DNA of 64,000 nucleotides from Marsupella aquatica (taxonomy: Eukaryota > Plantae > Marchantiophyta). How positions within the stretch are numbered: position 1 is the first letter of the stretch; each line of letters begins with the position of its first letter. The translations under genes were made by a program, and so were the position numbers. Location of the stretch: assembly GCA_973895155.1 (NCBI GenBank), contig OZ316895.1, forward strand, positions 13,884,225 through 13,948,224, given 5' to 3'. This document shows positions 6,401 to 64,000 of the stretch, piece by piece. The notes beneath the pieces were generated by a model. It searched no databases. It saw only the letters and a list, made by a program, of their open reading frames with translations, and was not told where the DNA came from.

Positions 6401-6540
6401 AATCCGCCCACCAAAACCCCCGCCATATGTAGCGGCGAGCTAACATCATAGCAAAGCCCCAATCCGCCCACCAAGAGCCGCGCCATATATAGAGGCGCAA
6501 GCTCGTACCTCCGCCATATGTACAGTAGCGGCGAGCTCAC
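6401..6540. repeat. Three degenerate GC-rich ~50-60 bp repeats
   Basis: AATCCGCCCACCAA..CCGCCATAT..AGCGGCGAGCT recurs at about 6401 and 6461, and partially at 6511. Confidence 0.55.
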
Positions 6541-28702: not shown

Positions 28703-29146
28703 CTGAAAGCCAAAAAACAATATGCAAATTACTTTGTCAAAAAGTTACAAAACTAATGAATACAAAAAACAAATTGAGTCTCTGAAACATATGTAGAAGC
28801 AAACATACAAATTCCCAAACCACAAGAGTGCTTGAAAAAAACATCATTGCAAATTAAAACCATGGACTTTACTACTCATTCAAATTTTGCCAAAAGTTGT
28901 CGAAGCAAAGTTATCCCCAAAGTTAAAATTATCAAAATAATCCAAAATGGTACATAGAAAGAACATTGTAAATACTAGGTCTTATGAGTATAACCCTCTA
29001 TGTATCTAACTTTGAGGTTCTTTTTAGCAAGGTAGTGCTTCTCGAATCAAGGCCCAAGATCTAGAGAATCATTATCCAAGCAAACTTTTTTTCTACATCT
29101 CACAGGAATAGCATCTCGGTCATGAGTTGATGGTCCTGTACTATTT

Positions 29147-34208: not shown

Positions 34209-36317
34209 ATGGTCCTGTACTATTTGACACGTATGATGTATCTATTGCGTTAAATGGAATTTTTCCATCCACCACATGTGTTTGTCCTGAATCTATCCTC
34301 CGGGAAATAAACCTTGAAAGGTTAGGAGAAATAGGAACTAAAGGTTCTCGTGCTACTTTCACAACTTTTCTCTCTCGTACATTCTCAAAAAAGTCTGGTT
34401 TGTGCTTCTGTCCTCTCCTCTGTAGGATCTGAATAGCCTCAAATTGCAAGCCTTCCAAGGTCTTGTTGTCTCTATGAACCTGCTCATTTTCCGCTTTCAA
34501 CCTCTCAATCTCGTGCTTCAATTGTTGGGTCTCTGTACCCAGGGTTTTGGAGTTTGACACCTCCTTCAACAAGGCAGGCCATAGCTCCTCACAAAACATG
34601 GACTCCATGTGAGTGAAGTATTCTTTCACCTCTTTACACGTTTCCAAATATGTCTTAGCAAGATCCTTCAAGTTATCTCTGCTAGCCATTGTGTCCAACC
34701 TAACTCTGAAAGGAAAAACCAAATTTGACACTAAAGTTTGCATGAATAGTTTAATATGTGGCCTGATCGGTATGTACAAGGTTGGTGCATACAAGTACTA
34801 ATAATTCGTGCACAAGTCTGTCTACTCGCTCTTCATGGCCTCCTCTTCATGGCCTCCTTGTCAGTTTTGAACTAAATTGTTTGCCTTCTAGTACATGGCC
34901 AATTTTACAAGTATTGTTACAGTTTGGATTATTTACTCTCTCCTAGTGAAACTTGTCTATGAACGCGAGTAGAGAGTATAGTCGGGGTTCTGGTCTCTGC
35001 AGTACTAATCGGGGCCCAAAGTAGTTCACGGAATGAAAGGCATTGAAGTCTATGACTTCATAGACTCTCCACATAAATGATCGAGTTCCAGTCGAAAGCA
35101 AGGAAGTGAGATGAAGTGAAGTGAGGACAGGAAGTGAACGGAAAGGAAAGGAAAGGGAAGGAAGAAAGGAAGGAACACCAACGACGCAGCGCAACTAGGT
35201 CTGTTGCTGCTGTTGCCTCAAGGCTTTACTGAGAGAGCTGAAATTTTTCAACCATATGTGCGATGCAAGAGCCTAACAATTCTACAGCGCTATCAAATAG
35301 AAATCAGGATCGAATTGAATGTCGCTGCAAACATTCAATGTGATGGCGAAATTCAATACTTCACATGCGGAGCTTCGTATATGACAGAAACACAGGAATC
35401 TCCAAACCTTGGTTCTTAGATCGAGTCCACAGCAAATCGTTGGCTCCTGGATGATTGACAATTAATGTTCTCCACAGACTATCCTGCACCGGGTGCTAGA
35501 ATGACGTACAACGCTCTTCTTGCCAATCGCAAATTGTTGATGCAATAATGCTGACAGCCTTCCCAAGATTCAATTTGCATGAGAACTCAATTCGCAGCCT
35601 TCAATCGTTTGCATTTTTCACCTTCAATTTGCAACATGTCTGTGTATTTCTATTTCCGTGAAGGTGAGCGATCATGTCTCGACAACCATATGCAGGGGCT
35701 CCTGGTGTTTGCAGGGCGAACACCAGGGGTGGGGAGCAGGTGCACAGTAAACTTGTCGAGAAGTCAGTGTGCAACACGTGTATCCTGTGCCATTTTGTTT
35801 TATTATCAGTTTAAAGTTCGGGACCTCAAGGGCCGCAAAATTTCCGACCCTTGCCCTTGCAAATCCAGCAAACAAGCCGTCACGACTGTCGGTCTGTTGC
35901 TTCATGTACAAATGCCACGGGTTCATTTAAGGGTCGGAACATTCAGGACCTTGCACATGCAAGATGGCCCTTAGTTGTGTGCCTTTGGGGACCTTTTTGA
36001 GGGTCTGTTTGTTGCCCACCCCCCTCTTGGGACGTGTCACTTATGTGGGGCCCGTTCCAGGGGGTGCACTTGCTAGGGCATGCGGCGCCTCTCATCGGGC
36101 GGCTTTTGCGGAGTGTTGATTGGCCGCACTGGAGGGTTTTGTGGGGTCGACACAGTGGGTCATTTCCGGATTCAGGTTCTTTGCTATGAACATCCACCGT
36201 TTGTTTTGACCTTTGTTTTGTTTTTGTCATTCTTCCTTTCTTTCGTTCCATTCCATATCTTTGTTTTCTTTTTCTTTTTCTTTCTTTCCTAATGAACATT
36301 ATGCTATGGAGCCCTCT

Positions 36318-37790
36318 AGTGGTGGACCTTGCCACCCAGCACCCTCACCAATCCCAACACTCACCCCTAAGTGCCCCTAGTGCCCAAACGCCTCCATGGA
36401 ATACCTTGAGCAAGTATCCTAGTGCCCCTTGCACTACCGATGGCCCCTCCCATACGAAGCCGCACTTGCTCTCCTACACGACCATTACTCAACGGTCCTC
36501 ACTGTCTGCACAAGCAACCAAGCACCTTGGTAAGTAACCCTTCAGGATCTAGAACTCGCCAAGTCTAGCATCCTAACTCAGCTCAACAGACGTTGGTAAA
36601 TAGGTCAGTGATAGGTCCTCCCGATGCCATAAGCCGGAACCAGAACCCACGCCCACTGTTCATCCAGAACAGCTCCTTCCTTGGGCGCGGCCCGGGTTCC
36701 CCCTTGTACCTATCCATCACCAACTGACGGCCCTGACCTCAGGACATGCTCATGCCCAAAATAGCGTAGCTTGTCCTAAAGCTTGTCCTAAGACGCCAGG
36801 ACCAGAATGGCCCCGCCTCTAGCAACCAACACCCGCTTCGCCTCATTGACGGTCTAAGGACCGAGCACTCTTAGAACTCAACCTCCATACCTACTTGGCC
36901 TTGCGTCCCCAACGCAAGCTCCCTTGGGAGACTGAACGCGGTTTGGCTGCTGTTCGGCAGGATATGGCAAGCAGGCGAGTTAACACCCTCAAACCCCAAG
37001 AACCCAAGGTGCCCCCAGACCCAGTTGAGCTCCTCCTGAGAGCTTTCCAACGCACCCAAGAAGTCCTCCAACGGACTTCCCATTGGGAAGATATTGTCGT
37101 TTCCGTTTGGCGGTTTTCCTTAGTGTCGCGACCGCCGCGGCTCACGACTTTGGCTCGCCCTTAGCCCCCAGGGAGACACCACTCCCCTCATATATGTTTT
37201 TGGAGACCTGCCACCCTTGGACCATCTTTGGTCCCTAAACATTTGGCCTCCAACGCGGATCCTATTGCGCATAATGGGCGCGCCACCAACTAGCAACGCC
37301 CATAACTTTCTCGTTAGGCATCCTCAAGCAGAGTGCCTTAGCCCGTTGTGATTGGGCCGACCCAGTGCTCATGCCTAGGCCCTCAGGTCTCATCTCCGCT
37401 TGGGGGCCCCAATCGGCCCAACCCGGATCGGGCCATAACTTGCGCCCCAAGCGTCCGTTGCCCATGGCGTCAACTTCATGGGCCTTAGGCCCAAGAGGAG
37501 CTCACACTCAAGCCCTCAGAACTCAAAGTCCATCCAGAGGCCCGGACGACCGTCCTTGAGCTTGACTTATTTCCCCTTGACCCAACCAGCTCTCAGCTAG
37601 CCCAAGTCCTTAGTGTGTGTCACCAGCTTGGCTCCTTGCCTTCGCTAGCGCCACGTCTCGTCGCTCACAAGTCTCCCCATGCTAAGTCCTCCCCGGATGG
37701 CCTATCCAGGCCTGGACCATAAGGGAGCTCGGCGTCGGAGTCAACGACGTCGGAGCTAAGTGTTAAGGTAGTCGAGTTCCGCGACTCCTC
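36318..37790. repeat. Left arm of a ~1.47-kb inverted repeat
   Basis: Reverse complement of 41622-43105 along its length (AGTGGTGGACCTTGCCACCCAGC.. to ..GAGTTCCGCGACTCC); roughly 80-85% identity by eye over the segments compared. Confidence 0.85.
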
Positions 37791-41621: not shown

Positions 41622-43105
41622 TCGGAGTCGCGAGCGGAACTCAACTACCGTAACACTTAGCTGACTCCAACGCCAAGCTCCCTTATGGTCCAAGCCCGGA
41701 TAGGCCATCCGGGGAGGCCTTAGCATGGGGAGACTTATGGGCAATGGGACGTGGCACTGGCGAAGGCAAGGCGCCAAGCTAGTGACACACACTAAGGACT
41801 TAGACTAGCTGAGGGCTGGTCGGGTCAAGGGGAAAAGGGCCGGGCTCAAGGTCGACGGTCCAGACCTTTAGATGGGCTTTGAGTTCTGAGAGCTTGAGTG
41901 AGAGCTCCTCTTGGGCCCAAGGCCAATGAAGTTGACTCCATGGGCAACGGACGCTTGGGGTGCGAGTTATGGCCCCATCCGGGTTTGGCCGATTAAGGGT
42001 CCTGAGTGACGATGGGATTTGAGGGCCTAGGCATGAGCACTGGATCAGCCTGATCACAACAAGCTAAGGCACTCCGCTTGCAGATGCCTAACTAGAAAGT
42101 TATGGACATTGCCAATTGGTGGCACGCCCGGACATGCGGTTTGGGGTCCAGATGGGGGGCCAAAATTTGGGGACCAAAGTTGGTCCGGGGGTGGTAGGTC
42201 TCCAAAAGTATATATGAGGGGAGTGGTGTCTCCCTGGGGGCTAAGGGCGAGCCGAAGTCATGAGCTGCGGTGATCGCGACACTAAGGAAAAATGTTAAAC
42301 AGAAACGACGATAACTTCCCAATGAGAAGTCCGTTGGAGGACTTCTTGGATGCGTTAGAAATCTCTCAAGGAGGGCTACGTCTTTCTAAGCTCAGCTAGG
42401 TCTGGGGATGCCATAGATTCTTGGGGTTTGAGGGGGCTATATCACCTGTTTGCCAAATCCTCTCGAAACAGTAGCCAAGCCGCGTTCAATCTCTCACGAG
42501 AGCTTGTGTTGGGGAGGCAAGGCTAAGTAGGTATGGAGGTTGAGTTCCAAGGGCATTGGGCCCCTAGACCATAAATTGAAAGAGAACTGGGAGTTGGTTG
42601 CTAGAATCGGGGCCATTCTGGTCCCGACGTGTTGGGACAAGCTTTAGGACAAGCTACGCTATTTGGGCCATGAGCATGTCCGGGGGGCAGGACGGTCAGT
42701 TGGTGATGGATAGGTACAAGGGGGAACCTGGGCCGCGCCCAAGGCAGGAGCTGTTCTGGACGAATAGTGGGTGTTGGTTCTGGTTCTGGCTTATGGCGTC
42801 GGGAGGACCTATTGCTGACCTACTTACCAATGTTTGTTAAGCTTGAGTTGGGATGCTAGACTTGGGAGATCTAGATCCTAAGGGGTTACTTACCAAGATG
42901 TTTGGTTGCTTGTGCAGACAATGAGGACTGTTGAGTAGCGGTCGTGTTAGAGAGCAAGTGCGGCTTTGTATGGGAGGGTCCGTAGGCGGTGCAAAGGATG
43001 TCAAGTTGCTTGCTTGAGGTCTTTTGTGGAGGCATTCGGGCACCAGGGGCACTTAGGCATGGGTGTTGGGATTGATGAGGGCGCTGGGTGGCAAGGTCCA
43101 CCACT
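41622..43105. repeat. Right arm of the ~1.47-kb inverted repeat
   Basis: Inverted copy of 36318-37790; ORFs 36292-36537(+) and 42886-43200(-) share VVDLATQ.PHQSQH..SAQATKHLGK. Confidence 0.85.
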
Positions 43106-45151: not shown

Positions 45152-48100
45152 GAGATTTATTGTTTTGCCACCGTTTTTTTGCAAAATTACTACCTTGCCA
45201 TGGTTTTTAGATTATTTACTAGAATGCCACCTTTGTGCAGCAATGGTTAAGTTAACCATCTATGGTTAACTCATACTCATCCGACGACCAAAATCATGCC
45301 ACATGTCTGCATCCAATGGCGGGGATTTCCCTCAAAAATCCCTACCCACCTTGTTCTGCCCCAGCTGAAGGGGTTCGTTGCCTAGTGTGAGCTCACCCTT
45401 GCCTGCCCTCTCCCACTGTCAAAAACCTCTCCCTGGTATTCTTGGTTTGTTCCTATCAATCCCATCGCCTCCTAATCTTTGCTTTTAGGGTAGGAGCAAA
45501 ACACAAACATTGCACTCATGTTTTTCTCAAAGAAAATGTGATTTGAATACAGGACTTGCAATTTCGCCAAAGGAAACGGGAGTTGACAGTGACAGTAGAC
45601 CTTCCACTTCCGTGTCATATATCTTTGCATCGGGTAGGTCAAAATGAGCGTGGAGTAGCTTGTTAGAGTCATGACTTCCCCCTCCATATTCTCCCCTCCC
45701 CTCCACTCTTTCTCTTGCCTCCATAGCCACTACATTCAAGTCTTGTTTTCCCCAAAGAAAATGCAATTTTTCTGTCAAAAAATCAATTTTTTTGCAGCAC
45801 AATCCACCTGAACTTCGATTAGCATAACTTTGGATTGGATTGACAAAAACGAGCATGGAGTCGCTCGTTGGAACCACAATTCTCCCCTCCATAGTCTCCC
45901 CTCCACTCCCCTCCCTCTCCTACCTCCATAGCCACTACATTCAAATCGTGTTTTCCCCAAAGAAACACAACTTTTCTGTCGAAAAATCAATTTTCTGGCA
46001 GCACAGTCCACCTGAACTTCGATTAGCATATCTTTGGACTTGATAGACAAAAACGAGCGTGGAGTAGCTCGTTGGAACCACAATTCCACCCTCCATAGTC
46101 TCCCCTCCACTCCCTCCCTGTCGTGCCTCCATAGCCACTACATTCAGATCGCAAATTCCCCTGCAAAAATTAGTTTTTTTCAGCAGCATAGTTTGTTCAA
46201 CTTTGATTTGACATATCTTTGGGTTGGGCAGGCAAAAATGAGCGTGGAGTAGCTTGTTGGGATCGTGGTTTCCCCCTCCATAAAGTCCTCTCCTCTCCCA
46301 TCCCTTTACTACCTCCACATTAGACCATTTTACCCCTAGATTGCTGCCCTAATTGAGTTGTGATTTCTGTCGATTTTCATTGAAATCTCAGAAGTTGTTG
46401 ACTTTGCGATTCTGATTTGTCTTGGAGATTTTGTAAGTAGGCAACATTGCAAGAGAGGGCAAGCTTGGGGAAGAATGGATTGTCTACAATCAACTTCTTG
46501 GAGGAGTTTTGTGGCCTGGTCTTGGCTTGAGATTCAACCCAAATTTCAAGCTTGTAGCTGGACTTATGAGCAATTGTTTCTGGTTTTCAAATGAATGACT
46601 AGAATGCATCATTGCTCTAGGGTATGCTCAGCCTGCTTCAATTGACTTTGCCCATGGAAATTTTAGATTCCGTTGGCTACAATTCACCAGGTTGAGCATA
46701 GAGAGCTAAGTCAAGAGCTACTGATCAATCTAGTTCCTAGGAACTTCCACAATGTAATAATGTTTAACGCAATATATGTTTTGAAGACTATTTTGAATGT
46801 GTTTCAATTGTCCAATTACATTTTACATTGTGCACAATCCACAAGTGTTTGCTTTCAATTTGTTATTGGAACTACATACTGGAGCCAAGAACAAGTAATA
46901 TTGATTATCTCCTTCGTCCTCAAAAAATTGTCATGAATTTCTACTGGATGTTGAATTTGAACCCAAGACACATTGCCCAGGTTGTCATTCAATCTCTACT
47001 TATCCTGTAACACACTAGCTAATAAGTGAGAGTAAAATCCATGTTCACTGTCTCGCTGAGAATTAACAAATTTGTGACTGATTGAGACATCACTGATATA
47101 TCTAGAACTTCTTGACTAAGTTCTCCTCCTTCATTATCAGAGATGTAAGCATCCTTTCTGCTTGCCACTGCATCAACAGCAAACTCTAGATCATCATCAT
47201 ATTCACAATCTGACAAATCATCTTCTGACAACTCATCTTTTGCCTGTGCATGAGCATCTGCCAACTCCTCAAGGTCCACATTGTTCTCCTGGTCTGAGAC
47301 TTCTTCTTCACTGTCCTCTGTTGGCCCTCTACCTCTTGCTTGGGACAACATTGCATCACGAGCTGGGCACTTTCTCCTATCATGCCCAAGTTCCTTACAA
47401 TGGCATGTTGTCTAGGTCTTCGAGCTGGATCCTCTGGTGCAAATCTTGGTCGTGCCTTTTCTGATGGGCGGCCCCTCTTCCACTTGACCAATGGCTCTCC
47501 ACAAGCATTGTTTGGCACAAGGCCATCCTGCAAAATTGCTGGCACACCTGCTGAATATGTCTGCTGAAATGTGACAGTAGAATAAAATTTAGAAACATAG
47601 TCATATTGACGCTTGTGCAACCTGGTGCAAGCCCTCCATGCATGGACGCAAGGCAGCAAAATGTCCTGCCAATCTCCACAACTGCATTTCCATTCAGGTT
47701 CAAATTCGACCAAAAATTGTTTGCGTAAAAAGTCAGTAGCTCTACACTCAGTAGGAGATGAAGCATCAGCAATGAGAAGGGAGGCCTTCTCCTCAGTATG
47801 CCTCAATAGAGTCATAATGTTGGGAGGAAAGGGTGTAGTGATTGATTCAGCAAGTTGTCGCTTCTCAAAATACTTCGTCATCATGTAGTCCCATAACATA
47901 TTGGACTGCTTGAAAGCCACTTCTTGTTGTTGTGGCTTCAAAGCCCTATTCAAGCTTTCAGCTTGCTGACTGGTTTCATGGCCCCATCTGCCAACCAAAA
48001 TTGTTGGTGAGAATAGTCACAAGCAACAGTACAACTGACATATGATATTCAGACAAACTTGTCATATACCTTTTAACTGGACATAAAGCTCAAGAATAGT

Positions 48101-49030
48101 GTTTTGGGTCTGCTGTCCTTTCAATGTACTTCGCAAGCCTTGTATTCTTGGCTTTAATTCGATCGAGCCTCCTCTTGAATTGTTCTGGAGAGGTAGCGTA
48201 CACCAAAGGCTCAAAATCTTTTTGTGCTTGCTTGTTGAAGTGCGTCCTACAGAAAAACCAATGAGTGAGTGATGCAATGATATTTATGCAAGTTACTATC
48301 AACAAGAAACATTTACACAATAAGTGAGGATGTAAAAAGTGGTGTACCTGCAATTATCTCCAAGATGCCAGGAGCAGAAGGCATGAAATCCCCTTGGGAA
48401 AATTTCTACCACACCATTCAACAAACCCTTTTCTCTGTCTGAAATGAAGACAGTTCCTGGTAGGGCCAACTCAGGTATAGCATCTCTAATTAATTGTAAA
48501 AATCTTAACCATTGTGTGGGGTTTTCAGTGGGAACCATACAATAGGCAAGCATGAGCACATAATTGTTTGCATCCATTGCGGTGGCTATAAGCAAAATCT
48601 GCGGGTAAGAAGATCTTGTGTGAGTCCCATCAAATGCTACAAAGGGTCTGCAATGCTTGAAGGCCTCTCGAGCTGCCCCGGGGCTAACAAACAACATCTC
48701 AAACCTACCATCTGGTGCAGAATACTTTGCTGTAGCCATGGGATCCCGCTGCATAATGTGGTGACAGTGCCCTGGAATTAAGAAAAATGAGTCTTTTTCT
48801 TTTCCATCCAATCTGTCCAAAGCTCTTTTCTTTGCTGCATATGCAGTGTGATATTGTATGTTTGGGTGAATAAGAGCTTGAGCTGTATCTCGCAATGATG
48901 AGGCCCTGGTCTGCCTATTTCTCATGATGATATCAATGATTTTCTGTGCAAGACAGTCTGAGTTTGTATGCATGCGTTTCTTCCAATGGTCTGCTGCCTC
49001 ACAACTATGATCTGTGTGTGCCTTGGTGAT
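45152..49030 (-). mobile_element. Mutator-like element (MULE), 3' part; the 5' part lies beyond the Gypsy insertion, outside the window
   Basis: Mutator-like terminus GAGATTTATTGTTTTGCCAC.. at 45152; subterminal ~190-bp repeats at 45560-46320; MuDR-type transposase downstream of the Gypsy junction. Confidence 0.82.
47019..49030 (-). pseudogene. MuDR-type transposase (DDE + SWIM + Zn knuckle), interrupted at 49030
   Basis: ITKAHTDHSC, AFKHCRPFVAFDGTH, AMDANN..LAY..VPTEN..W..FL, FISDREKGL, HAFCSWHL, TSQQAESLN, SWIM CSCGDWQDILLPCVH, knuckle CHCKELGHDRRKC, acidic tail; introns at about 48347-48247 and near 48060-47995. Confidence 0.9.
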
Positions 49031-49635
49031 TGTCGTGCGCATACACATCGCTACACAACATACATCGCTTGTCACACATATCCAAACATAGTCACAATCT
49101 AACGACACAAACCTAAGAGAATGATCTACAAATGGAACCCATGTCCATACATGCCCAAAATCCACAATAATCTTCTTCAATAGTGCAAATTGAACAACGA
49201 TCGATGCTAATCCAACAACGATCCCATCCGACGCGATCACACATGTATGTCAAGCCCAATGCACCTTATGCTTCAAGGAATCCACGTTATATGCACACAA
49301 CCTAGTCAGCCACACCATAGCCACCAAGCTCATGCTCAAAGGCTCAACATTGAAAGATGAGGCCTTTGAGCCAACACAAGGGGATAACTATCCCTCACAC
49401 CAACTCAAACTAAACATAGTGCTCATATAGCACACATACAAAACCTCTATACCTAGATAGTACGATATACTTTACTACCACTCTAAATGGTGTGACAGCT
49501 GTCGTGCGCATACACATCGCTACACAACATACATCGCTTGTCACACATATCCAAGCATAGTCACAATCTAACGACACAAACCTAAGAGAATGATCTACAA
49601 ATGGAACCCATGTCCATACATGCCCAAAACCCACA
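49031..49635 (-). repeat. Gypsy 3' terminal repeat block, A'-GC-B-A in element orientation
   Basis: 49031-49166 and 49500-49635 are 136-bp direct repeats with 2 mismatches; B (49168 onward) matches 57586-57687 plus 63990-64000. Confidence 0.9.
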
Positions 49636-49812
49636 ATCGCCCCCTTAGCTGGGAGTGAGGTCCCCTAACTCTAGCTAGCCATGAGTTCTACAAGGTTGAT
49701 ATACACCTTTTTTTAGGTGTGAAGATCAGGAGGCCGGGTGCAAGTGAGCCCCATCGATCACCTACCTGCAATCTATATCTTCCACAAGAACACAAATGAT
49801 AACTAGTCGGCA

Positions 49813-49960
49813 TCACTGATATTGAGGACACAACCATGATCCACTAGGAATCATGTGCAAGGGTGGTGTCAAACACGACATGTGCCATCCTCTAGAACAT
49901 CGATCACAAATCAACATAGTAGTTGCTCCCTCAGCAGACCCACACAACATACACTTCAGG
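49813..49960 (-). pseudogene. PHD finger at the integrase C-terminus
   Basis: CMLCGSAEGATTMLICDRCSRGWHMSCLTPPLHMIPSGSWLCPQY fits the C4HC3 PHD pattern (last Cys decayed to Tyr). Confidence 0.9.
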
Positions 49961-52805
49961 CCAGCACGAACATGTGCCAAGCTTGGATCCACAGTACCAT
50001 CAATGTTTGGAAGATGACATGACACACAATTACGCACATGATCCTTCCAAACCATACCATCACGTCCTTCCAACATAAGGACTCCAGAAGGCAACACTTC
50101 ATGCACACGTAAGATTGTCCACCTTGCGGTCACATCAAGCGTCGTTGGTGCTGTCTGCTACAAATAAACATAATCGCCAGGATGAAATCTTCTAATCCTC
50201 GTGCGATAACCTCCTCCACGAATAGTAGTATACCGCAAAGTATCACAATGTTGGGCAATAGCAAGGTTGTCAAAGGCCATGGCATGACTCTCTCAAAAAC
50301 TCATGCCCTCTCTAAACAAACCTTGACCCAAATATCTGGATCATCCAAATCTACAACAGTTGCAACATCACGACGAATAGCTGCCGGCAAATCTGGTTTT
50401 CTACCATAGAGCAAGAAATAAGGTGAGAAGGATGCAAGTGATGCTTGTTGACTGAAACGGTAGCCCATAGCTAACCAAGGTAGTTGGAGATCCCAGTCTC
50501 CCAAATGACCAACCTGCAAGCCATACTTACGTAATCCTCTCTTCATAGTTTGTACAACTCTCTCTGCCAATCCATCTGCCTCAAGATGATCGCGAGAAGT
50601 AGTACGATGATCAATCAGAGCTTGCTCACACAAACCCTCAAAATCTCCATGGAATTCCGTGACCTGATCAGTCAACACCTCAACTGGTGCTCCAAAGTGA
50701 CTGAGTACTCGATCCAAAAATGTGGTAGCCACTCCTCCACTAGCTTTGTCTGGCAATGCCACTAGTTCAATCCACTTGGAGAAGTGCTCCACCATAACCA
50801 AAACATACCGATTATGACGTTGGGTAAAAGGCAATGGACCAGCAAAGTCCAAACTCCATGGATATCCCAAACCCATGATCGGCAACGGATGCAACTGGGG
50901 AGTGGGAGCATTGAACGATGCCCGAACTCGATCACAAACCACACACTTAGCTATCAATTGCTGGACATCAGTGTGCATACCACGCCACCAATACTACGTC
51001 TGCAACAAGCTATAAGTGCGCTTCACACCGAAGTGCCCTAAATCTTTGTGCGCATGTCGCACCAAATGTACTTGTTGTGACGGTTTTGGTACAACCAACA
51101 CCTTCCCATCATGTAGTACCCTCAAAAGATGGTTTCCTTCCCATCAAAATCTCTTGGCTCGTTGTAGAACCCTATCACGATCCTTAGCATCAACATTGCC
51201 ACCAATGGAGCCACCATGCAAATATTCCAACACTCTCACATCGTTGTGAATATCTTGCTGTTCAAAAACTACATCACCAACATCCATATCTGAAGACTCA
51301 TCATCTACTCCATCCAATGAAGTAGAGTCTATAGATCCACTGCATGCTGGCACCCAACAAAGGAAAGCAGATGCATGCCATCCTGGCACCATCTCCTTAT
51401 CTGTCTCATCATGCCATCGGGCTCCAGTCTCATCCTCTTGACTGGTACATGGATTGCGGCTCAACCCATCTGCATCCAAATTTACTTTTCCAGGTCTATG
51501 CACAACCTGAAAATCATACTCCTGCAAAAACAATGCCCATCGTGCAAGCTTCCCTCTAAGCTTATCAGACTCCATTAACCACTTGAGAGGTTGATGATCA
51601 GTGATCAAGGTGAACAAATTACCAAACAAATAGCAACAAAAATGTGCCACAGCCCACACTGCTGCCAAATACTCTCCCTCATAAGAGCTATACTTAGCCT
51701 CTGCTAAATTGTTGGATCTACTGGCATACGCCACAACAAACTCATTCCCCTCATTATCCTTCTGAGTCAACACTGCTCCAAGCCCTACTCCACTCCAATC
51801 AGTGTGAAGCTGAAATGGTCGCCCTGAAATGGGTCTTCTCAAAATAGGTGTTGACGCCAGTCTTTCCTTCAACTCTTGGAAAGCATGCTCCTGGTTGTCT
51901 CCCCAAATCCACTCCTGATCCAACTTAGTGAGGATAGTTAAAGGTTCAGCAAGCTGGCTAAATCCTTTAACATACCTCCTATAGTAGCTCGCCAATCCTA
52001 AGAATGCACGAACTCTGCTCACATTAGTAGGATGAAGAATCTGTGTAATGGCCTCCATTTTAGTCTGTTGCACACCCAATCCTCTTGGGTAGATAGTGTG
52101 GCCCAAATACTCAATCTTCTCTTGAAAGAACTTACACTTGCCGGGATGGAGCTTCAATCCATGTTCCCTCAATCTCTCAAACACAATCTGCAAGTGTCTC
52201 TGATGTTCTTCCATAGTAGAAGAATAAACCAAAATATCATCAATATAACAGCTGACAAAATCCAAACCTGCAAGGATTCGATCCATGACTCTCTGGAACT
52301 CAACTGGTGCATTCTTCAACCCAAATGGTAAGAACAACCACTGATACAAATGATCTTTGCCATAAAAATCAATCTCCCAGAATGTTGTCTTGGACCTGTC
52401 AGAATGCCTAATTGGCAACTGATGGTACCCCGCCTTGAGGGTCCAACGAACTAAAAATCCTTGCATGCCCCACTGCATCAAAGATCTCCTCCGGTGTGGG
52501 CATGGCATATCGATCAGATTTTATCTGACAATTAATAGGCCGGTAATCACCGCACATTCGCCTATCTGTGTAATTGTCATCAGCACATCCTTCTTGGCTG
52601 GCATCACTGTGGCAGATGCATACTCTCTATATGAAATCTCCACCAAACCAGCTTCCAACAAATCCTGAGTTCTACTCTGGATCAATGCCCTCTCCATATC
52701 ACTATATCGGTATGGTCGTCGAAAGATTGGCGCATCACTAGCCAATTCAATCTGAATACCAGGGCCCTTCAATGTTCCCAAATCTTTCATGCTAAATGCA
52801 AACAA
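49961..52805 (-). pseudogene. Gypsy pol: reverse transcriptase, RNase H and DDE integrase
   Basis: PIFRRPYRYS, LKAGYHQL, LPFGLKNAP..FQRVMD, YIDDILVYS, LHTDWS, ITDHQPL, NLDADGLSR; integrase HHCC (HAHKDLGH..CVVC), WSLDFAGP, LTDQ.TEF, DGLAERVV; several stops and frameshifts. Confidence 0.95.
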
Positions 52806-53129: not shown

Positions 53130-54060
53130 AAGCTGATAATCCAAGTCAAGCAATTCAAATCCATGGCTTGACCAAGGACTTGGCGGCCTGAACTCTCTGA
53201 CACAGAGGCAACCGTAGTAGTGCCAGTCAAAAATCCCATAACACGCTCTCTTTCATCAGCAGTAGGTTCCACTAACTACTGTAGAGTTGTATCCTAGACA
53301 AGTCCAGGCCCACCTGCTCTGAATGCATATGAAGTAGAATGACTCACAAAAGTAGGTAATGCACAACGTGGGCGACCAACTACATTGACCACTGCCAATG
53401 GAGGTCTGTCAGGCTGGGTCACACCTTGTGCACGACGCCCTGGATCCAAAATATCATCCACCACCAAGGCTGCTGAGCAAGGAATGCTATCAAATGCTCG
53501 CTTCAACACCTCACAAGGTAACAAATTAGTCCACCACAAGCGTGGACGATGTGCACGAGAACCCACATGTGCAGCATTCAATAACACAGCAGGTCCAATC
53601 CAAAACTTAACCTGATGAACGCTGGCAACAAGTCGATGTCGATCATCACCCAATAATGACACATTCTCCAAAATGACGCAACACCCGTAACATCTCCCAA
53701 AACAATGCAGATCTTGGATCATGAAGTCCATGTCCAACTCTAGCTCTAGATTGACCCTGACATGGCCAACCTGCAATCACCAAATCAATGAGGCCAACGC
53801 GATCCAAGTGATCCGCCCCCAACAATGAAATATCAGCTAGCAATGCATGCTGATAACCACGAACGGCATCCACTGGCAACAACTGTGGGTAATGTTTGAC
53901 CAACGTACAATGCCACATGACGTAATGAGACTCTACGTGTTGTCTCATCAGTCTCCACATACAAATAACAACACATAGGAATGTCGGCTTGAAGAACGAC
54001 AGCCAATCTAGTGCTAATTCCACCAAATAAATCCAACAAACAAATATCCTCATGTGGATA
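53130..54060 (-). pseudogene. C5-cytosine DNA methyltransferase domain (DNMT3-like) embedded in Gypsy pol
   Basis: Motifs in canonical order across three frames: I LLDLFGGIS, II YVE, III ADI, IV IAGWPCQGQS, V LHDPRSALF, VI ILENV, VIII AHRPRLWWTNL, IX ERERVMGF, X RQVLGQAM. Confidence 0.9.
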
Positions 54061-54419
54061 TTGCCATGCAATAGGAGTAGTATCCAGTGATGAAAGAGTC
54101 ACTGGTCCATTTGCAGTTGACTGCTCTGCTCTTGATTGCGGTGTAAAAGCATGACGCCATGCATCATGTATCAATCGGGCCGCACTTTGTGGCAAGGCCT
54201 ATCCAGTCCCCCATACTGGTGTCACAACACTATCAATGGGCAATCCATGCATCAAGTGTTCCTCATGTGTCTCCTCCACCATAACAACATATGTTGCATG
54301 TGCGTTACCCTCAATCAAATCATCAGCTCCAGTAATCAAACTACTGAATGCTACCAAAGATAATGGTGCAGATTTGGGGCCTCCAATAGGTCCACTAAAT
54401 TGCACTAGCAATTGGCTCA

Positions 54420-56460
54420 ATCGAGAATCTTCAGATTGCCAATCGGGTCAATACGACACCGATTCATTCCAAAAATCAAGAACAAATCCCATAGGATAGA
54501 GAACTATACATCCCACCAAGACATCATATGACTCAGCCTTAGTCAAAATAGCTCAAGCCTGGATCCGTGAGTTATCCTTTGAATGATCCTCCTGAATCCT
54601 AAGTTCAAGTGCTCGTCGATTGATATGCTGTGTGGGTGTAGGTCCTCCCAATGAAGTCTGAATGAAAAAGGGACACTCCTCCAAATCATCAGGACGCAAT
54701 CCCAATCCTCTTATCGCTGACTTACCCAAAATCAAAGGCTGAGCACCAGTATCCAGTAACACTTGCTCTGGCTGGTATATTGCTCCAGAAGGCCCAACTA
54801 ATCGGAAGATACCACTCCAATTATCCAATGATATGACGCTAGGTTTAAACCTAGTCCTCTCATAAGCAAGGCGCGCTGGTAAATCTATCAACCTTGCCGC
54901 TGTTGCATGCCATGTGTCATTACTGGCAATAGGTGAATTCAACTCCACTGCTTAAAAATTGGGCGTTGCTTCTGCACGCAAAGCAACAGCTGGAGTGTCC
55001 TCGCATAATGTGGCCGCCAATCTGAACACCTCTGCTGGACTAACTCCCAATGTCAACGTATCCGTAGCTGAAAATAATGGTGTGTGCACTATAGTAGTGG
55101 CCGCCCCAACAAGGTACTTGTCATCCCTGTCACAACATCACTTGATTCTGCCAACTTACCCCCACCTGGGTTAGTCCGAATCGGGTTCTTAGAGGTAGTT
55201 TGAACTGCCTCTAACAATGTAAACGACTGAGGGAGCTTTGTTTGACGACGAGCATCCCCTCTTTGAGGATCTAACTCTACTACTGCTCCTTGGGGCTCAA
55301 GGGCTTTTGCTGCTCCTCGAGTCAAAGTTGTTGATGCTTCGACATGGGCAATGCCACACATAAATCCCATGGTGGCAAGATCTCCATCAGCTCCATAAGA
55401 GGTTGAAGCTCCATAGGATGTAGAAGCTCCATCACTAGCAGTAGGTCTAACTTGAGAACTAGCCATTGCCGCTAGTTGTTGCTCCAATTGAGCAATCTTT
55501 GCATCCTTAGGATCTGTGGTAACGGTAGGAGCAACATCACCTCCCTATCTTCCTGCATGTGGCATGCCTCGACCACGTCCACCACCTCAATCTACCTCCT
55601 CTTCCCTGATCATACGCACGTGGTCCTTCCCGTCGTAGTTCATGATGAAGTACAAAACACCTATCTTTGGTGTGTCCAGCAACTCCACAATGATCACATT
55701 GTCGTTATTCAAACGTAGATGCCCCTCCTTGCCCCCTATTATCTGGGCAATATCTTTGTGCATGATCCCCACCACAAGTCCAACATCTTGACTGTTGTCC
55801 AGCATAAGAAGGCACAGGTCTCTGACTAGTAGATTCCCGTATTGTAGGCTTCTCCCTCTAGCTCTTACGTGCAGTACGTTGCGGTGTGGGCGTCGATGCA
55901 ACCTTTGGTGCTTCCTTGGAAAATCCGGAAGTCACCACCTTCTCATTCACCATATTGAGCTCAATGCGCTCAGCAAGTGCAACAACTATAGCCAATGTGG
56001 GATTTGAATCCCTCAATAGAGTGACATCTCTCACTCTACGATGCAACTCCCTATCCAGAATTGCATACCAAAATTGGACCGCTTGGGCCTCTGTCACTCC
56101 TTGTGTGATCGTAATCAACCTTCGCATACGAGTGTATGCCTCACGTAGGCTCTCTCCAGTTTTGCGTTGGAACTCTTGAAGACCCTTCAACTTATCGATT
56201 CTCACACCCTGATAGTTCTGCTTCAATACTTCTAAGAACTTCATCACAGGGTTAAATATTGGTGCAGCTCCACTCCCAGCCACAATCACACCGGTAGGAA
56301 TAGCGGTGGATGTTGATGGAGTGCCACTCTGGCTAGTGCTGCTAGAAGAAGCCGTAGCTATAGCAATTGGTTGGGCAACCGCACTTGTGCCATAAGTGAT
56401 GGACACATAGTTTGGTGACCAATGCTGTCTCCATGCCTCAATATCCACTAAATGAGCCTT
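54420..56460 (-). pseudogene. Gypsy gag (capsid-like region and two CCHC knuckles) plus aspartic protease
   Basis: LQEFQRKTGESLREAYTRMRRL..A.AERIE (gag); CWTCGGDHAQRYC and CDHCGVAGHTKDRC at about 55780-55645; VLLDTGAQ protease motif at about 54750. Confidence 0.88.
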
Positions 56461-56500: not shown

Positions 56501-56941
56501 CGGAACGGTGTTCCGTAATGCACCACCACCAATCTCCAAGATAATTGATGGAACGGTGTTCCGTAAACTGCTTAGTTGTAGGAGAGTGTTCCGCAACCCT
56601 CCATCACCAATAGCCAAGCTAATTGGCGGAACAGTGTTCCGTGAGTTGCCTAGTTGCGGGATAGTGTTCCACAACCAACCCTTGTTCACAACGCAGACGA
56701 GACGTGTGCTGGGGCAGACCAATCTTCAATATGCACCCACAACAGAACAGTGTTCCGTGGAAGACCAATCTTCCCAAAATTGTCACAACAAAATGGTAAT
56801 CTGTACCCGATCATTCTCCAATATGCACTCACGACGGAACAGTGTTCCGAGGAAGACCAATCTTCCCAAAACTACCATGACGGAACGGTGTTCCGCAATC
56901 AACCAATCTCCAATATGCCCTCTCAACGGAACAGTGTTCCG
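56501..56941. repeat. Array of nine palindromic CGGAAC(A/G)GTGTTCCG-type motifs in the Gypsy leader/gag 5' region
   Basis: Copies start at 56501, 56549, 56579, 56627, 56657, 56743, 56835, 56881 and 56927 (spacings 48, 30, 48, 30, 86, 92, 46, 46); those at 56579 and 56657 are degenerate. Confidence 0.85.
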
Positions 56942-57687
56942 TGGAAGACCTTCACAACCTTATTGCTGCGAAAACCCCACCGCAATTCTCGGACAAAGCA
57001 CTGTTCACTAACTTTGTCATTTTCCTTGTGCCCTAGGTCGTCGCCACACCTTGCCTCTCCGCGGTGCGCTACGTCGCTGCAGGCAATGCAATTCGCCAAC
57101 ATTCAACGTCACTTTCTTCGAAGGAATGCACTGTCCGTCAATTCAACATCAAACTTGATGAATCTCAAATCTGCAAAATACAACTTCAACGATCAACTCC
57201 CGATTGGGACCATCCCCGAACCAGAATCACAAACAATCACAAGTCTGATCAACTTGCCTTCACATAACCGCAGCAAATACTCTCAGCAATCCGCGCACAA
57301 TAGTCAATGGCAACTTCCAATCATCGACCGCACACTCAGTCTTCCAAAATGGTGCAATGTCGATCGATGCAAACCGCAACTCCAAATGCGCAACTCAACA
57401 ACTCAAAGCTCCGCATTCACTCAAGCTTTCTCAACACCAACTTGTAACAGATCGAGATACCAGCGATCCGTTCAACAACAAAACCCGATCCGAGATACCA
57501 CGAATCGTCAACAACAAAACCACAACAAAATCAAACTTTTGTTTGTACAATCCGTACATCAGAATTTGAAGCTGATCTTTCAATGTAATCTTCTTCAATA
57601 GTGCAAATCGAACAATGATCGGTGCTAATCCAACAATGATCCCATCCGATGCGATCACACATTTATGTCAAAGCCCAACGCACCTTG

Positions 57688-60600
57688 TGTTAGGAATTGA
57701 CTCCAGTTCCCGACATAGTTAGCTTGGTCTTACTAGGGTTAGTTAACCCTAGATTACATTTGGATAAGATCGGCTTAGTTTAGGCCCACTCATCTTGGCC
57801 CCCTTGGGGGGGTATAGGCTGGAGGGAGAGCACTCTCTCCCTCATTCTTCACATGTACTCTCATTTGCTATGGAGCCTTCAGGAGTTTCTCCACTCGGGG
57901 TGTCTTGTTGGTGTAGCGTCTGATTGAGTGAGTCTCTCTCATGTTTCTGCATTGCTGTCTAGTCCGGAGCTGACGGTTCTTACAAGTGGTATCAGAGCCT
58001 CGTGTTTGTGGTTCGGTGGCCTGGGGAGTGGTGAGAGCGTTTGTTGTGTTGGATTGTGGTGGAAGATTGAATTGTCGTCGACGGTTGCATGATCGTTTCA
58101 CTGGTTGTTTCGCGTTGAAGGTTTCGTGCTTGAATACGGTGACGGTTTCCCGATTGAAACTTCAGCTGGGAGTGTCGGATGTGTCTCTGTTCTTTGAAGT
58201 ACTGTCAAGAGGACAGTCTAGCGATCTCTTATGCGCGTCGGCGGGCACTACGTTTTGGTGAAGCTGTCACTGCTTTTCATCATTGGTGTCCTGAGTAATC
58301 TTGTAGATTGAGGTTGTTGTTTAGAGCTTGATGCTCTAGGTTATGGCTTGTATATGTTTCGACTTAATCTTGTGTGGGGCCGAAAAGTGCGTTGAGGGAC
58401 CGGTGTTGCAATTTATTTTTCTTTTCGTATATTTTTTGTTTGTGCCGCATCGCAACAAAATACGGCGGTGCGGACGGGTTTCTTTGCGTATGTGCGGAGA
58501 GAGGGGTGAAAGAGAGATTTTATTGCCCGGGCACGTTGCCCTATGCGCGCGAGTGAGCGAGGAGGGCTCGAAATACAAAGGACTGAAGGAGGAGCGAAGG
58601 AGAAAGTCGAGCCCCTAGACCGAGGCCCTATGAGGTACTAGAGCAGGGCCTTAGGTCTGTGCAGGTACAATCATACCTGTAAGTACAGTTTTAAAGTGAG
58701 GGGAGGGGGAGTTCAAAGCTCCCTTCTCTTGGGAGCTTTAAGGGGGCCATTGCCCTATGCAGAAGCAATAGGAGGGGAAAGGGGAAGCGAGCATACTCCT
58801 TTCCTTAGGGAGCACTTATTAACATGGGCACGAGGCCCTATGCTTGTACTTTAAGTGAGGAGGGGGAGCATACGAGGCTCCTTTCACTTTGGAGCCTTTA
58901 ATTAAGGCTTGCGTCAGGTGGATGGCCAAGGACACAAAAGGTACTATTGTACCTACACAGTACAGATTTGGGAGGGGGTATGAGGAGGTATTATATATCC
59001 CTGTACTCTGCCAGATTTTTTTTGAAAAGAAATTGAAGGTCGGGAGGACGATTGTAGTCTTTTCGTTCTTAATTTTTTTTGTAAGGGTTTTTACTTGTTT
59101 TCTTTTCTTTTCCTTCCGTGTTTGGATCTTTTCTTTTCCAATCGGACAGGTGTCGGCTCCACGTTCTTTCTGCTGTACATTTTGACTATACTTTGATTCC
59201 CTGAAAAAGATACTTTTCCAGAGAGCTGATTTTTGACTGAAATTTTCAATTTCAGCGGTCGTCGAGGCAGAATTTTTTGGCGACACTTTGCAAGGGGATA
59301 CTCAAGGGAGTTGAGCACGGGCTAGTGAAATTGATTCATGCGTTGCTGTTGCGAAATTTTTTCGGGACCTAAGATACCTGACGGGGGTCAAAACAACCAT
59401 TTTGACCCCCCTCTGGTCCGGGTTGAATAAGTTTTTGCTGAAGAAGTTTTTCGCCGAATTATTTTCAGATCTTGGCAGTGTACCTTGCAGGCTACGCGGC
59501 GGTGCATTCCATTTCCACTTTCGCCAACTTTCAATTTTTGGTGAATTTTTGGGTGGAGGTATTTTGGTTGTGTATTTCTTGTGTGTTTGTGGCAGCATCA
59601 ATGACTTCAAGAAAGCTTGCGGCGCCAAAGTTTGAGATGGAGAAGTTTGACGGGAAGGTTAGCTTCAGCCCCTGGACTCGGAAGGTGACCAATGTGTTGA
59701 TCCAGCAGGGTCTTGAGAAGACCCTCATTGGAGTGAAACCCTTGAATCTAACAGATGAGGAGTGGGAGGACATGTCGGTGCCGGCGTGTAGCACAATTGA
59801 GTTGTTCTTGGCAAACAACATTCTCAAGAACGTGTTGGGGATGGATCGGAATGCCAAGAAGATCTGGGATATGCTTACTCAGCTATACCAGAGTACTTTG
59901 TTGACTACTCGTATTTATCACTTGGAGTGGCTGTTCAGGGTGAAGTTGAAGGATGGTGGCAACATGCGTGATCACCTCAGTCTCTTCAATGAGATTGTGC
60001 ACGAGGTGACCACGGCGGGAGACAAGTTGACCGATGAGTATCTTGCGATGCATTTGTTGATGTTGCTTCCTCAGACCTATTCGACATTGGTGACGGTCAT
60101 CACACATGATAAGTCTACGTTGAAGTTGGATGAGGTGAAGGCTACCATTCTTGCAGAATGGGGCAAGCGACAACTTTCTGGCCGTGACAATGAGTCTGCT
60201 GCCTTAGTGGTTAGAGGCAGATCGACGGAGCGTACTATGGATCAGTCTAGATCTAAATCACATAGTAGATCTAAATCTAAGTCCCGTAGTAAGAAAGTTC
60301 AGTGTTGGCATTGCCATGAGAAGGGCCATACCAAGTGGAATTGTCCTTCTCTATCGAAGCAAAAGCGTCCTGCTTCCAATAGTGCGTCCTCATCGTTAGC
60401 TGGTATTGTGATTGCTGATAATGAGGATGCTGCTGAAGTGCTATGTATTGGTGCTATGAATTCTTTGTATGACAAGAAATGGATGTTGGATTCGGGTTCC
60501 TCTTATCACGTGTGTCCAATGCAATCGTATTTCTCCACTTACCAACCTTGTACCGGTACGGTGGAAATCAGAAATGGTGTCCGATGTGCGATTGTTGGCA

Positions 60601-63600
60601 TGGGGACTATCAAATTCCGGATGTTTGATGGTGTTGTGCGAGCATTGACGGGAGTCAGGCACATACCAGACATCTCTAAGAACTTGATTTCTCTTCGTGC
60701 TTTGGAAGCTGGTGGATCTCATTTTACTACACATGATGGTGCGCTCTTTGTTGTCAAAGATGATGTATCTTTGATTAAGGCGCTACGGCAGAATAATTTG
60801 TACATCTTGGAAGGAGATGTCATTGCTCCTAGAGTGGAGCATGTACGTGGATTCTGTGGTGGAACGTTTGGATGCCACGACAACATCTGCCGCAAAATCA
60901 TCTTCGGTTGCTTCAATTGAAGCACCCTCAATATCTGGTCGCACACAAGCCATAGATTTGTGGCATGCACGGTTGGGGCACTTGAGTGGTAAAGGATTGG
61001 CAGCCTTGGCAAACAGAGCTTTGTTGCAAGGCGCTCAATCTGGTAAAATCTCTTTCTGTGAAGATTGCATCTTCGGCAAGCAGAGGAGAGTGAGTTTCAG
61101 TTCTAGTTCATACCATTCTCATGAGATTCTAGAGTATGTACATTTAGATGTTTGGGGTCCAGCGCTGGAGCCGTCATTGGGTGGAGCCAGATATTTTGTG
61201 ACGTTTGTAGATGATTACTCTCGAATGTGTTGGCTGTACTACATGAAAGAGAAGTCTCAAGTCTTTGAGATCTTCAAGGAGTGGAAAACCATGGTAGAGC
61301 TACAAACTGGGAAGGAGTTGAAGTGTGTTCGGTCTGATAACGGTGGCGAGTATAAGTCCAATGAGTGTGATCAATTTGGTCGGGACCTTGGCCTCAAGCG
61401 TCATTACACTGTACCGGAGACCCCGTAGCAGAATGGAGTTGTAGAACAGTTGAATTGGACATTACTGGAGAAAGCACGCAGCATGCTATGTAAGTCCAAG
61501 TTGCCCAACAACTTTTGGGCTGAAGTTGTCAACCAAGCTGCATACGTCTACAATCTGTCACCGCATAGTAGTAAGTTGATGCAGACTCCATTTGAGTTGT
61601 GGTATAAGAGACCTGCTGATTACTCTAGACTTTGAGTTTTTGGTTGTGCTGCCTATGTTCACATTGAGCAGATACACAGGTCTAAGTTGGATCCCAAGTC
61701 TAAGAAATGTATTTTTCTAGGCTTTAGTCCTGGGCAGAAGGGCTATAAATTGTGGGATCCTGTCGATTGCAAGGCAGTTGTGAGCATAAATGTTGTTTTT
61801 GACGAAGAGTGGTTGTCAAGACCCCGGGATATTCAGGAGGAACAGGTGGAGGAACCCACTACGGTGGAGCTTGGTGGTGATGAGGAAGCTGCTGGTCCCT
61901 CTGGTAGAGGAGAAATTCCTCAACCAAGGCGCTCCACCAGGGCCAATTTTGGCCAACCCCCTGATAGATTTGGTTTTGCAGATCCTCGTGTTCACGTTGT
62001 TGAACATGACGTTGATCCCGATGTTGTTTTGCTTACTGAAGATGGAGACCCCTCTAGCTATGAAGAAGCTATGGCCTCTCCAGAGAAGGATAAGTGGTTG
62101 GAGGCGATGTTAAAGGAGATGAATTCTTTGAAGAAGAATTCAACTTGGCGCTTAACTGACATGTCTCGCGGAAAAACACTGGTTCCGTGTAGATGGTTGT
62201 ACAAGAGGAAGTAGGATGGCACTTACAAGGCACGCCTTGTGGCCAAAGGGTACACCCAAAAGGAGGGCTTGGACTACACGGAGATTTTCTCACCAGTTGT
62301 CAAACTCGCCACTATTCGTGTTTTACTTGCGATTGTGGCATTCTATGATCTTGAGTTAGATCAAATGGATGTAATTACTGCTTTCCTGCATGGATTGCTT
62401 GATGTAGAGATTTATATGACTCAGCCTCCAGGTTTTATTGACGAGAAGACCAGACACTTGGTGTGTAAGCTCTTGCGATCGTTATACGGATTGAAGCAAA
62501 GTCCCAGATAATGGAATAAGCATTTTGATTCCTTCATGTTATCTCAGTGGTTCACACGAAGTGAACATGATTGTTGTATTTACATGAAGGAGATGGAGAA
62601 TTACTCACGTTTTGGTTACATTGTGCTGGCATTGTACGTGGATGACATGCTTATCCTGGCTGAGAATAAGTCTGATGTTGCCCATCTGAAAGCAATGCTG
62701 AGTAAGGAGTTTTCAATGAAGGACTTGGGTTAGGCCAAGAAGATACTAGGGATGGAGATTCTTCGTGACAGGGAGCAAAGGCAATTATGGTTGTCTCAAA
62801 GGCAGTATTTGGAGAAGGTACTTGCCAAGTATGGAATGGAGAATGCAAAACCAGTTGGTACTCCATTGGCCTCCCACTTTAAACTCTCAAAGGATGATTG
62901 CCCTTCTAGTGAGAGTGATAGACTGGCGATGAAACATGTTCCCTATGACAGTGTTGTGGGTAGTTTTATGTATGCAATGACATGCACTAGACTTGACATT
63001 GCCCACGCTGTTAGCATTTTGAGCAGATTTATGGCAAATCCTGGTAAGCTTCACTGGGAAGCAGTGAAGTGGGTTTTGCGGTATCTGAAAGGTACCTTAG
63101 ATTGTGGGATCTTATTTGACGGTAAAGCAGACTCTACATTAGAGTTGGAAGGTTTTGTAGATTCAGATTATGCTGGTAACTTGGATAACAGGAAGTCTAC
63201 TACAGGCTATGTGTTTATGCTGGGTGGAGGTTGTATTAGCTGGAAGTCGGCAACTCAATCTTGTGTTGCGTTGTCTACTACTGAGGCTGAGTACATGGCT
63301 GCATGTGAGGCAACCAAGGAGCTGATCTGGCTAAGGAGATTGGTGAGTGATCTGGGTCTTTCACCTGAAAGACCGGTGCTACTGTGCGACAGTCAAAGTG
63401 CTTTGCATCTGGCTAAGAACCCTGTGTTCCATGCCAAGACAAAGCACATTGATATTCGTTATCACTTCATCCGTGAGGTGATTGAGACGAAGCAGATGTT
63501 TCTGGAGAAGGTGGCTTCAGAGGAGAATGCGGCAGACATGCTTACCAAAGTTTTACCTACCAGTAGCTTTAGTCATTGTGTGGATATTATTAATGTTAGG

Positions 63601-63984
63601 GCCAAACCGGAGACTATGTAAATATGTTACTTAGTTGCATATTGTATATCACCTGACTCATTGTGTGAACTTGAGTCAAGGTGGAGATTGTTAGGAATTG
63701 ACTCCAGTTCTCGACATAATTAGCTTGGTCTTAGTAGGGTTAGTTAACCCTAGATTACATTTGGATAAGATCCGCTTAGTTTAGGCACACTCATCTTGGC
63801 CCCCTTGGGGGGTAAAGGCTGGAGGGAGAGCACTCTCTCCCTCATTCTTCACATGTACTCTCATTTGCTATGGAGCCTTCAGGAGTTTTTCCACTCGGGG
63901 TGTCTTGCCGGTGTAGCGTCTGATTGAGTGAGTCTCTCTCATGTTTCCGCATTGCTGTCTAGTCCGGAGCTGACGGTTCTTACA
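57688..63984 (+). mobile_element. Full-length Ty1/Copia LTR retrotransposon (Tnt1/Tork-like), inserted in the Gypsy 5' repeat
   Basis: LTRs 57688-57984 and 63689-63984 (TG..CA; 10 substitutions and 1 indel by my count); CCTTG TSD at 57683-57687 and 63985-63989; PBS TGGTATCAGAGC (tRNA-iMet) at 57987; PPT AAGGTGGAGAT at 63678. Confidence 0.97.
59601..63621 (+). pseudogene. Copia gag-pol, disrupted
   Basis: KFEMEKFDGK, CWHCHEKGHTKWNC, WMLDSGSSYH, LWHARLGH, HLDVWGP, RSDNGGEY, ARLVAKGYTQKEGLDY.EIFSPV, LYVDDML, GFVDSDYAG, KHIDIRYHFIRE; frameshift near 60850 and stops at about 61426, 61633, 62212, 62509 and 62731. Confidence 0.96.
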
Positions 63985-64000
63985 CCTTGTGCTTCAAGGA

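Follow-up and report, generated by a model that had tools for sequence, protein, structure and literature searches.

Split terminal repeats in a Gypsy retrotransposon lineage of the green plants: possible integration from circular cDNA at a site inside the LTR

A 64,000-nucleotide stretch of DNA from Marsupella aquatica (Marchantiophyta; contig OZ316895.1, positions 13,884,225 to 13,948,224), referred to below as the window, raises the question of how a Gypsy retrotransposon with a DDE integrase can be bounded by ends that lie inside its LTR. The element is located on the minus strand of the window, and its repeats follow the order B–internal–A–GC–B–A (Table 1). This split layout had been described in the original prediction and was found again here: the two A copies (49031-49168 and 49500-49637) differed at 2 of 138 bases, whereas the visible B copies differed at 8 of 111 bases and by one indel. 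GACAGCTGTC at 49494-49503 was the sole copy of this 10-mer in the window, and the outer end of the element coincided with its left half. The palindrome at the A/B boundary and the placement of the outer terminus at that boundary were thus as predicted, with the outer ends falling on palindrome halves. The same was true of the PPT directly before the inner A and of the terminal A abutting a MULE transposase. The B repeat of the 3' LTR likely holds the promoter, R and U5.

By collinearity, the outer end of the 5' B is predicted at 64218, past the window end at 64000. A Copia LTR element (57688-63984, plus strand; TSD CCTTG) with frameshifts and stops is nested in the 5' B. Its LTRs differed at 10 of 296 bases, and it is younger than the Gypsy element that hosts it. 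The leader between PBS and gag contained tandem repeats of 46-92 nt (56508-56950). Elsewhere in the window, an inverted repeat with arms of ~1.5 kb, 83% identical and ~3.9 kb apart (36318-37782 / 41634-43105), is possibly a long-TIR DNA transposon. A Myb/SANT-like ORF (PF13837) was seen at 28064-28744, and LINE-like RT and zf-RVT frames were seen on the minus strand at 29508-34797.

Table 1. Coordinates of the features of the split-end Gypsy element and its target in the window
Feature	Position	Strand	Remarks
MULE transposase, interrupted host target (DDE and SWIM parts)	47186..49030	-	PF10551 E 1.9e-13, PF04434
Predicted 4-bp TSD TGAT (+ strand)	49027..49030	.	predicted partner ~64219-64222, beyond the window
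Terminal A repeat	49031..49168	-	element 3' end ..CGACA at 49031
B repeat of 3' LTR	49169..49497	-	begins TGTCAC
12 nt in B complementary to PBS	49347..49358	-	putative transcript 5' end and self-primer
Palindrome GACA-GC-TGTC	49494..49503	.	A/B boundary; putative integrase attachment site
GC spacer between inner A and B	49498-49499		
Inner A repeat	49500..49637	-	starts directly after PPT
Polypurine tract (PPT)	49638..49650	-	ends ..AAGGGGGCG; same position in relatives
PHD finger, integrase C-terminus	49813..50157	-	PF00628 E 6.1e-11
Integrase core D-x59-D-x34-E and end of H2C2 finger	50301..50993	-	PF00665 E 1.1e-11, PF17921
Reverse transcriptase and RNase H	51144..52520	-	PF00078, PF17917, PF17919
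C5 cytosine methyltransferase, frameshifted, three frames	53294..54198	-	PF00145 E 2.6e-7 on 53646-54098
Aspartic protease	54553..54951	-	PF13650 E 0.0029, short of curated cut-off
Likely gag fragment	55858..56460	-	no Pfam match; assigned by position
Self-priming primer-binding site (PBS)	57575..57586	-	first base marks end of B
5' B repeat, visible 3' part	57587..57687	-	interrupted by the Copia element
Copia TSD and resumed 5' B up to window end	63985..64000	-	matches 49264-49279

The Pfam matches within the element were arranged in the Gypsy order, i.e. PR, C5 DNA methylase, RT, RNase H, H2C2, integrase core and PHD. The frames flanking the PF00145 match of the methyltransferase were similar to relatives in tblastn, and the gag-candidate region (55858..56460) was kept at the equivalent place in L025, L049, L064 and L078. 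As the original prediction had noted, no recombinase was visible: Pfam gave no match to a tyrosine recombinase in 33 window frames of at least 75 aa and no recombinase match in 17 selected ORFs of five relatives. Nor was a chromodomain matched after the integrase in the ORFs scanned; the PHD finger is found there instead. The DDE integrase was intact within open polyproteins of L015, L017 and L020. D-x34-E was present in the window and in seven of eight intact relatives checked, while the eighth did not fit the search pattern. The usual spacing from the second D to the E is 35 residues, and the lineage has 34.

The closest named proteins were from Marchantia (64-73% identity), and those of Klebsormidium, Closterium and Tetraselmis were more distant. 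In a quick RT tree, from which L025 and L078 were left out and which contained no labeled KnitGypsy-Dnmt3 sequence, the window element was placed beside Marchantia proteins and family-2 loci, apart from flowering-plant elements. Two unlabeled K. nitens proteins fell into its group of 42 rows (SH-aLRT 92), in which the Marchantia rows were nearest. The most probable affiliation of the element is with the streptophyte Gypsy-DNMT3 lineage, which is also named in the available part of 10.64898/2026.05.21.726589. The DNMT lies before RT in the clade of the window element and between RNase H and integrase in L012, L014-L017, L020 and L050. An extra 794-aa ORF without Pfam match was observed between pol and palindrome in L020 (11450-13831).

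Relatives were taken as the best 80 of 565 loci from a metagenome scan. A and B probes matched 37 of these 80 (best of 565), in two families besides that of the window; the 43 of the 80 without a match were mostly short or of other clades. Duplicates (L004, L036, L048 and L041 of L005, L034, L047 and L033, respectively) were removed, and L015, in which the palindrome is followed by another gag-like frame and which may be an assembly chimera, did not enter the form counts. Most two-ended relatives belong to one family, and the 31 distinct 3' ends seen in the best 80 of 565 loci are therefore not counts of independent lineages: 14 read A-NN-B-A, 14 read A followed by host DNA, in 2 the contig ended within B, and 1 was rearranged. 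In the same best 80 of 565 loci, A was upstream of B at none of the 16 visible 5' ends, and no ordinary LTR terminus was found among the ends of relatives. Ordinary A+B LTR pairs in other copies, which the original prediction had named in advance as evidence against itself, were hence not encountered at these 5' ends. Among 47 listed A starts, 32 followed the PPT, 15 followed the end of B and none followed host DNA. The split layout is real and lineage-wide and is not a local duplication. L005 (13259-13843) was a nested insertion: its 3' flank consisted of the integrase-PHD region from a second copy lying in the opposite orientation.

The original prediction had left room for a later local duplication, and the extra A of the window could also have been introduced by the assembly into an element with two ordinary LTRs. 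The A copies of the window element were indeed more alike than its B copies (Fisher p = 0.026), and the far end of the element lies past base 64000. This explanation is nevertheless very hard to maintain, because the same layout recurred in two further families and in 14 independent insertions with different flanks (best 80 of 565 loci). A and B divergences were similar in six relatives, so that the difference in the window is likely due to chance or conversion. Moreover, the A copies of the window differ at two bases and thus do not represent one collapsed sequence.

The outer ends of the relatives were TGTCA…CA. Eleven two-ended elements and one solo B.A unit made up the set for TSD analysis, with ends assigned by eye to TGTCA and to the final ..CA of A (the first of two possible ends in the case of L056). 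L007, in which the terminal A is interrupted, and L025, L030, L044 and L052, which have no 3' end, were not part of the set. For a length of 4 bp, 36 of 48 positions matched; 4 of the 12 TSDs were perfect and 9 of 12 matched at three or more of four positions. This score was reached by none of 20000 mismatched pairings, and lengths of 2, 3 and 5-8 bp gave only 25-38% matches. Among the imperfect TSDs, L011 matched at 1/4 and L045 and L047 at 2/4. A 5-bp TSD was rejected (20/60 matches, 0/12 perfect). As the TSDs of the relatives are 4 bp long, TGAT (49027-49030) is expected in the window rather than the 5-bp GTGAT (49026-49030) of the original prediction. A solo B.A unit was seen in L066 (~6060-6526, minus strand; 467 bp, TGTCA..GACA ends, 3/4 TSD); it resembles an ordinary solo LTR, yet is permuted.

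The GC spacer was present after the 3' end in 0 of 12 related insertions and before the 5' end in 2 of 12. Insertion into unrelated targets with the spacer dropped argues against a recombinase. The idea that a tyrosine recombinase supplied in trans inserts the element agrees with the repeat layout, which fits recombinase elements. It is opposed by the 4-bp TSD on unrelated targets, by the spacer counts just given and by the polyproteins of L015, L017 and L020, which contain the intact DDE integrase and gave no recombinase match. We regard it as extremely improbable. Judging from their sequence, the termini are products of integrase.

The exact palindromic 10-mer was found in 8 copies in 788 kb of loci, as compared with 0.42 expected. 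Three of them marked A/B boundaries, and the remaining five were located behind pol in members of a distant RT clade in which the DNMT sits after RT. In L017 the palindrome is within the end of pol and was left uncounted as a site. The inner A was separated from B by 2 nt, either GC or a simple variant of it, in every junction listed. We infer that the palindrome GACA-GC-TGTC serves as the integrase attachment site. The 3' part of the family-1 A (e.g. L010 13190-13233) consists of tandem 15-nt units ending in CACGACA, the copy number of which varies; these are possibly repeated integrase-binding sites. An exact 24-nt pattern of the A end had 0 matches in metagenome contigs, and protein scans of viral contigs gave no useful match. 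A 16-nt junction pattern matched 8 viral loci, none of them similar to RT or integrase, and these matches were taken as chance.

The 12 nt after the 5' B proved to be the reverse complement of 49347-49358 (12/12, shuffle p = 0.001). The 3' B stood in for this comparison, the matching part of the 5' B being outside the window. In the relatives, no more than 3 of 150 shuffles equaled the self-priming match in 10 of 15 cases, and the other 5 were not significant. The complementarity was kept with three different sequence pairs. In family 1, the PBS-complementary match ended 44-46 nt after TATAA and so begins about where transcription should start.

At the join of B and terminal A, the last base before the PBS is fused to the first base after the PPT. 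The original prediction had taken this join for an LTR-end to LTR-start junction that lost its CA; instead, it corresponds in the window exactly to the base before the 12-nt PBS fused to the base after the PPT. The join was exact in 11 of 15 rows, and the other four deviated by +1, +1, -1 and -3 nt. The family-1 ends at the join were devoid of TG and CA altogether. The B/A join is predicted to mark the ends of the linear cDNA. One copy, L035 (7150-15028), contained an internal inversion, the breakpoints of which lay precisely at the end of B and ~15 nt inside A, as would be expected in this single case had the end of B and the start of A once been free.

The A copies were closer within elements (0.115) than between them (0.139-0.160; permutation p = 0.0002, 11 elements). 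Across the 11 elements, no difference consistently set inner A apart from terminal A, and the nearest neighbor was the element's own partner for only 8 of 22 A copies. Given that A copies pair up within elements, each cycle likely generates the terminal A anew. Gene conversion could add to the similarity within elements. These data also bear on a mode of copying as in PAT/Ngaro, in which the transcript would extend through the terminal A, the B/A join would be inherited via RNA and the inner A-GC-B would template the circle junction. The repeat order equals that of split-direct-repeat elements as described in the available text of PMC7192593, and such copying would account for the single form observed. 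However, the joins lie at the PBS/PPT boundaries in three families of different sequence and vary by a few bases, inner and terminal A lack fixed class differences, and the intact PPT and self-priming PBS point to standard reverse transcription. We therefore consider copying of the PAT/Ngaro type improbable.

With outer ends on palindrome halves inside the LTR, we lean towards integration from a 2-LTR circle that is opened there by the element's own DDE integrase. Transcription would begin in the 5' B, and the RNA would prime itself on the PBS. Given the positions of PBS and PPT, ordinary reverse transcription would yield a linear A-GC-B-internal-A-GC-B molecule. Its two free ends would be joined end to end, giving rise to the B/A join and a 2-LTR circle. 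At the GACA-GC-TGTC of the upstream LTR, integrase would then cleave each strand behind its CA, so that the resulting CA-3' ends would have 2-nt overhangs and the geometry of processed retroviral ends. Insertion of these ends would result in the TGTCA..CA termini, the loss of the spacer and the 4-bp TSD that are seen in relatives. Joining of the ends before or after integration would produce the same sequence, and we infer the circle step of the model.

A 2-LTR circle opened at an att site within the LTR was also the mechanism of the original prediction. The split ends and the att-like site speak for it, but a symmetric circle predicts about one-half mirror forms. Of 10 elements that showed both their 5' end and an A-NN-B at the 3' side, none had the mirror form B.A-GC-B-internal-A (binomial p = 0.002 if both sites were used equally). 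With two identical sites in a symmetric circle, some bias is required. The observed product alone keeps R at both ends and could be recopied, so that selection would favor the upstream site. Our best guess for how this site is chosen is that the plus strand would be unfinished over the downstream LTR. The B-internal-A copies would be dead ends, arising from 1-LTR circles, from double cuts or from later A-A recombination. In the available part of a report on a Drosophila element, 1-LTR circles were dominant (10.1101/2022.09.25.509424). 2-LTR circles were rare there, which counts against the circle model.

An identical final sequence would arise if no circle were formed and integrase cut the upstream palindrome in linear cDNA and inserted the halves, with host end-joining sealing B to A. 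Imprecise joins (4/15) and the rearrangement of L035 would be accounted for in this way, and a double cut would directly give the common B-internal-A form (14 of 31 3' ends, best 80 of 565 loci). On the other hand, a blunt-ended chromosome break would have to be repaired correctly each time, and 11 of 15 joins were exact; mirror forms are also predicted here unless there is a bias. Insertion from linear cDNA is thus rather unlikely in our view, though the least unlikely of the alternatives to the 2-LTR circle. For the clade as a whole, it appears on balance plausible that in Gypsy elements of the green lineage, from algae to land plants, the att site has moved into the LTR, that integration obligatorily uses circular cDNA and that the upstream site is chosen.

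The circular-DNA route is usually regarded as a dead end for LTR retrotransposons of the Gypsy kind. It has long been asked in retrovirology whether integration can proceed from 2-LTR circles, and the literature found, as far as available, treats them as a side route. The window lineage appears to depend on this route and offers a simple system with a 10-bp site, one integrase and relatives in the tractable plant Marchantia. If true, the model would mean convergence on a DIRS-style architecture with DDE chemistry and would make 2-LTR circles a natural, true integration precursor. If true, an integrase able to open closed circles at one short, defined site would also be of interest as a tool. 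Structure-based LTR finders need two matching LTRs with TG..CA ends, according to the available text of PMC6317226. They are thus likely to miss split-end elements or to misplace their boundaries, and counts of the DNMT-carrying lineage in plant genomes may be too low.

Among known elements, the window element is similar to KnitGypsy-Dnmt3 of Klebsormidium, for which the legend to Fig. 4c of de Mendoza et al. 2018 (PMC5890265) gives DIRS-like repeats together with Gypsy domains. Both combine a Gypsy pol that includes a C5 methyltransferase with a DIRS-like layout, and in the quick tree Klebsormidium, Closterium and Marchantia proteins were in the RT group of the window element. The available part of PMC5890265 describes KnitGypsy-Dnmt3 without termini, palindrome, TSD, priming mode or integration model. 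It was the only account of this layout in a Gypsy element found in a literature search that extended neither to Repbase and theses nor to most subscription papers. Within its incomplete coverage, that search brought up nothing on the palindrome, the TSD, self-priming or the route of integration. The repeat layout is therefore already on record for a Klebsormidium Gypsy element, and the mechanism for the window lineage was not found in print.

The order PR-RT-RH-IN, the DDE integrase with H2C2, the PBS after the 5' repeat and the PPT before the 3' repeat are those of Ty3/Gypsy elements. Short TSDs with TG..CA termini, likewise typical of Ty3/Gypsy, were present in the relatives (4 bp), the far end of the window element being outside the sequence. 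Two complete terminal LTRs, in contrast, are not what the lineage has, as its termini are inside the LTR and A begins 0 of 16 5' ends. A self-priming PBS complementary to the LTR and not to a tRNA is shared with Tf1/sushi and with plant Tcn1 chromoviruses (PMC6317226, available text). For the window element, this likeness is one of sequence complementarity only, and it differs from these elements by its PHD finger, DNMT and split ends and by yielding no chromodomain match.

PAT and Ngaro have split direct repeats in the same order as the window element, and a circular intermediate has been proposed for them in the available text of PMC7192593. Unlike PAT and Ngaro, the window element combines a DDE integrase with PPT, PBS and Gypsy-type RT and RNase H, and its relatives have 4-bp TSDs. 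PAT and Ngaro are tyrosine-recombinase retroelements that are not known to make an ordinary TSD, and TOC1 is grouped with these PAT-like and Ngaro elements.

Retroviral integrases can cut palindromic circle junctions. In the available parts of the reports on PFV (PMC1180852) and HIV-1 (PMC4372172), integrase cleaves a palindromic CA..TG junction to integration-ready ends, as is proposed here, and the palindrome is the join between the two LTRs and belongs to a side path. In the window lineage, in contrast, the palindrome is passed on within each LTR, the true join would not be the att site and the circle would apparently be the main route. The DDE transposases of bacterial IS3, IS30 and IS21 act on abutted ends with a short spacer, as would be the case for the window element. 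The junction of these insertion sequences is made by the transposase from the element ends, whereas that of the window element would be copied through RNA.
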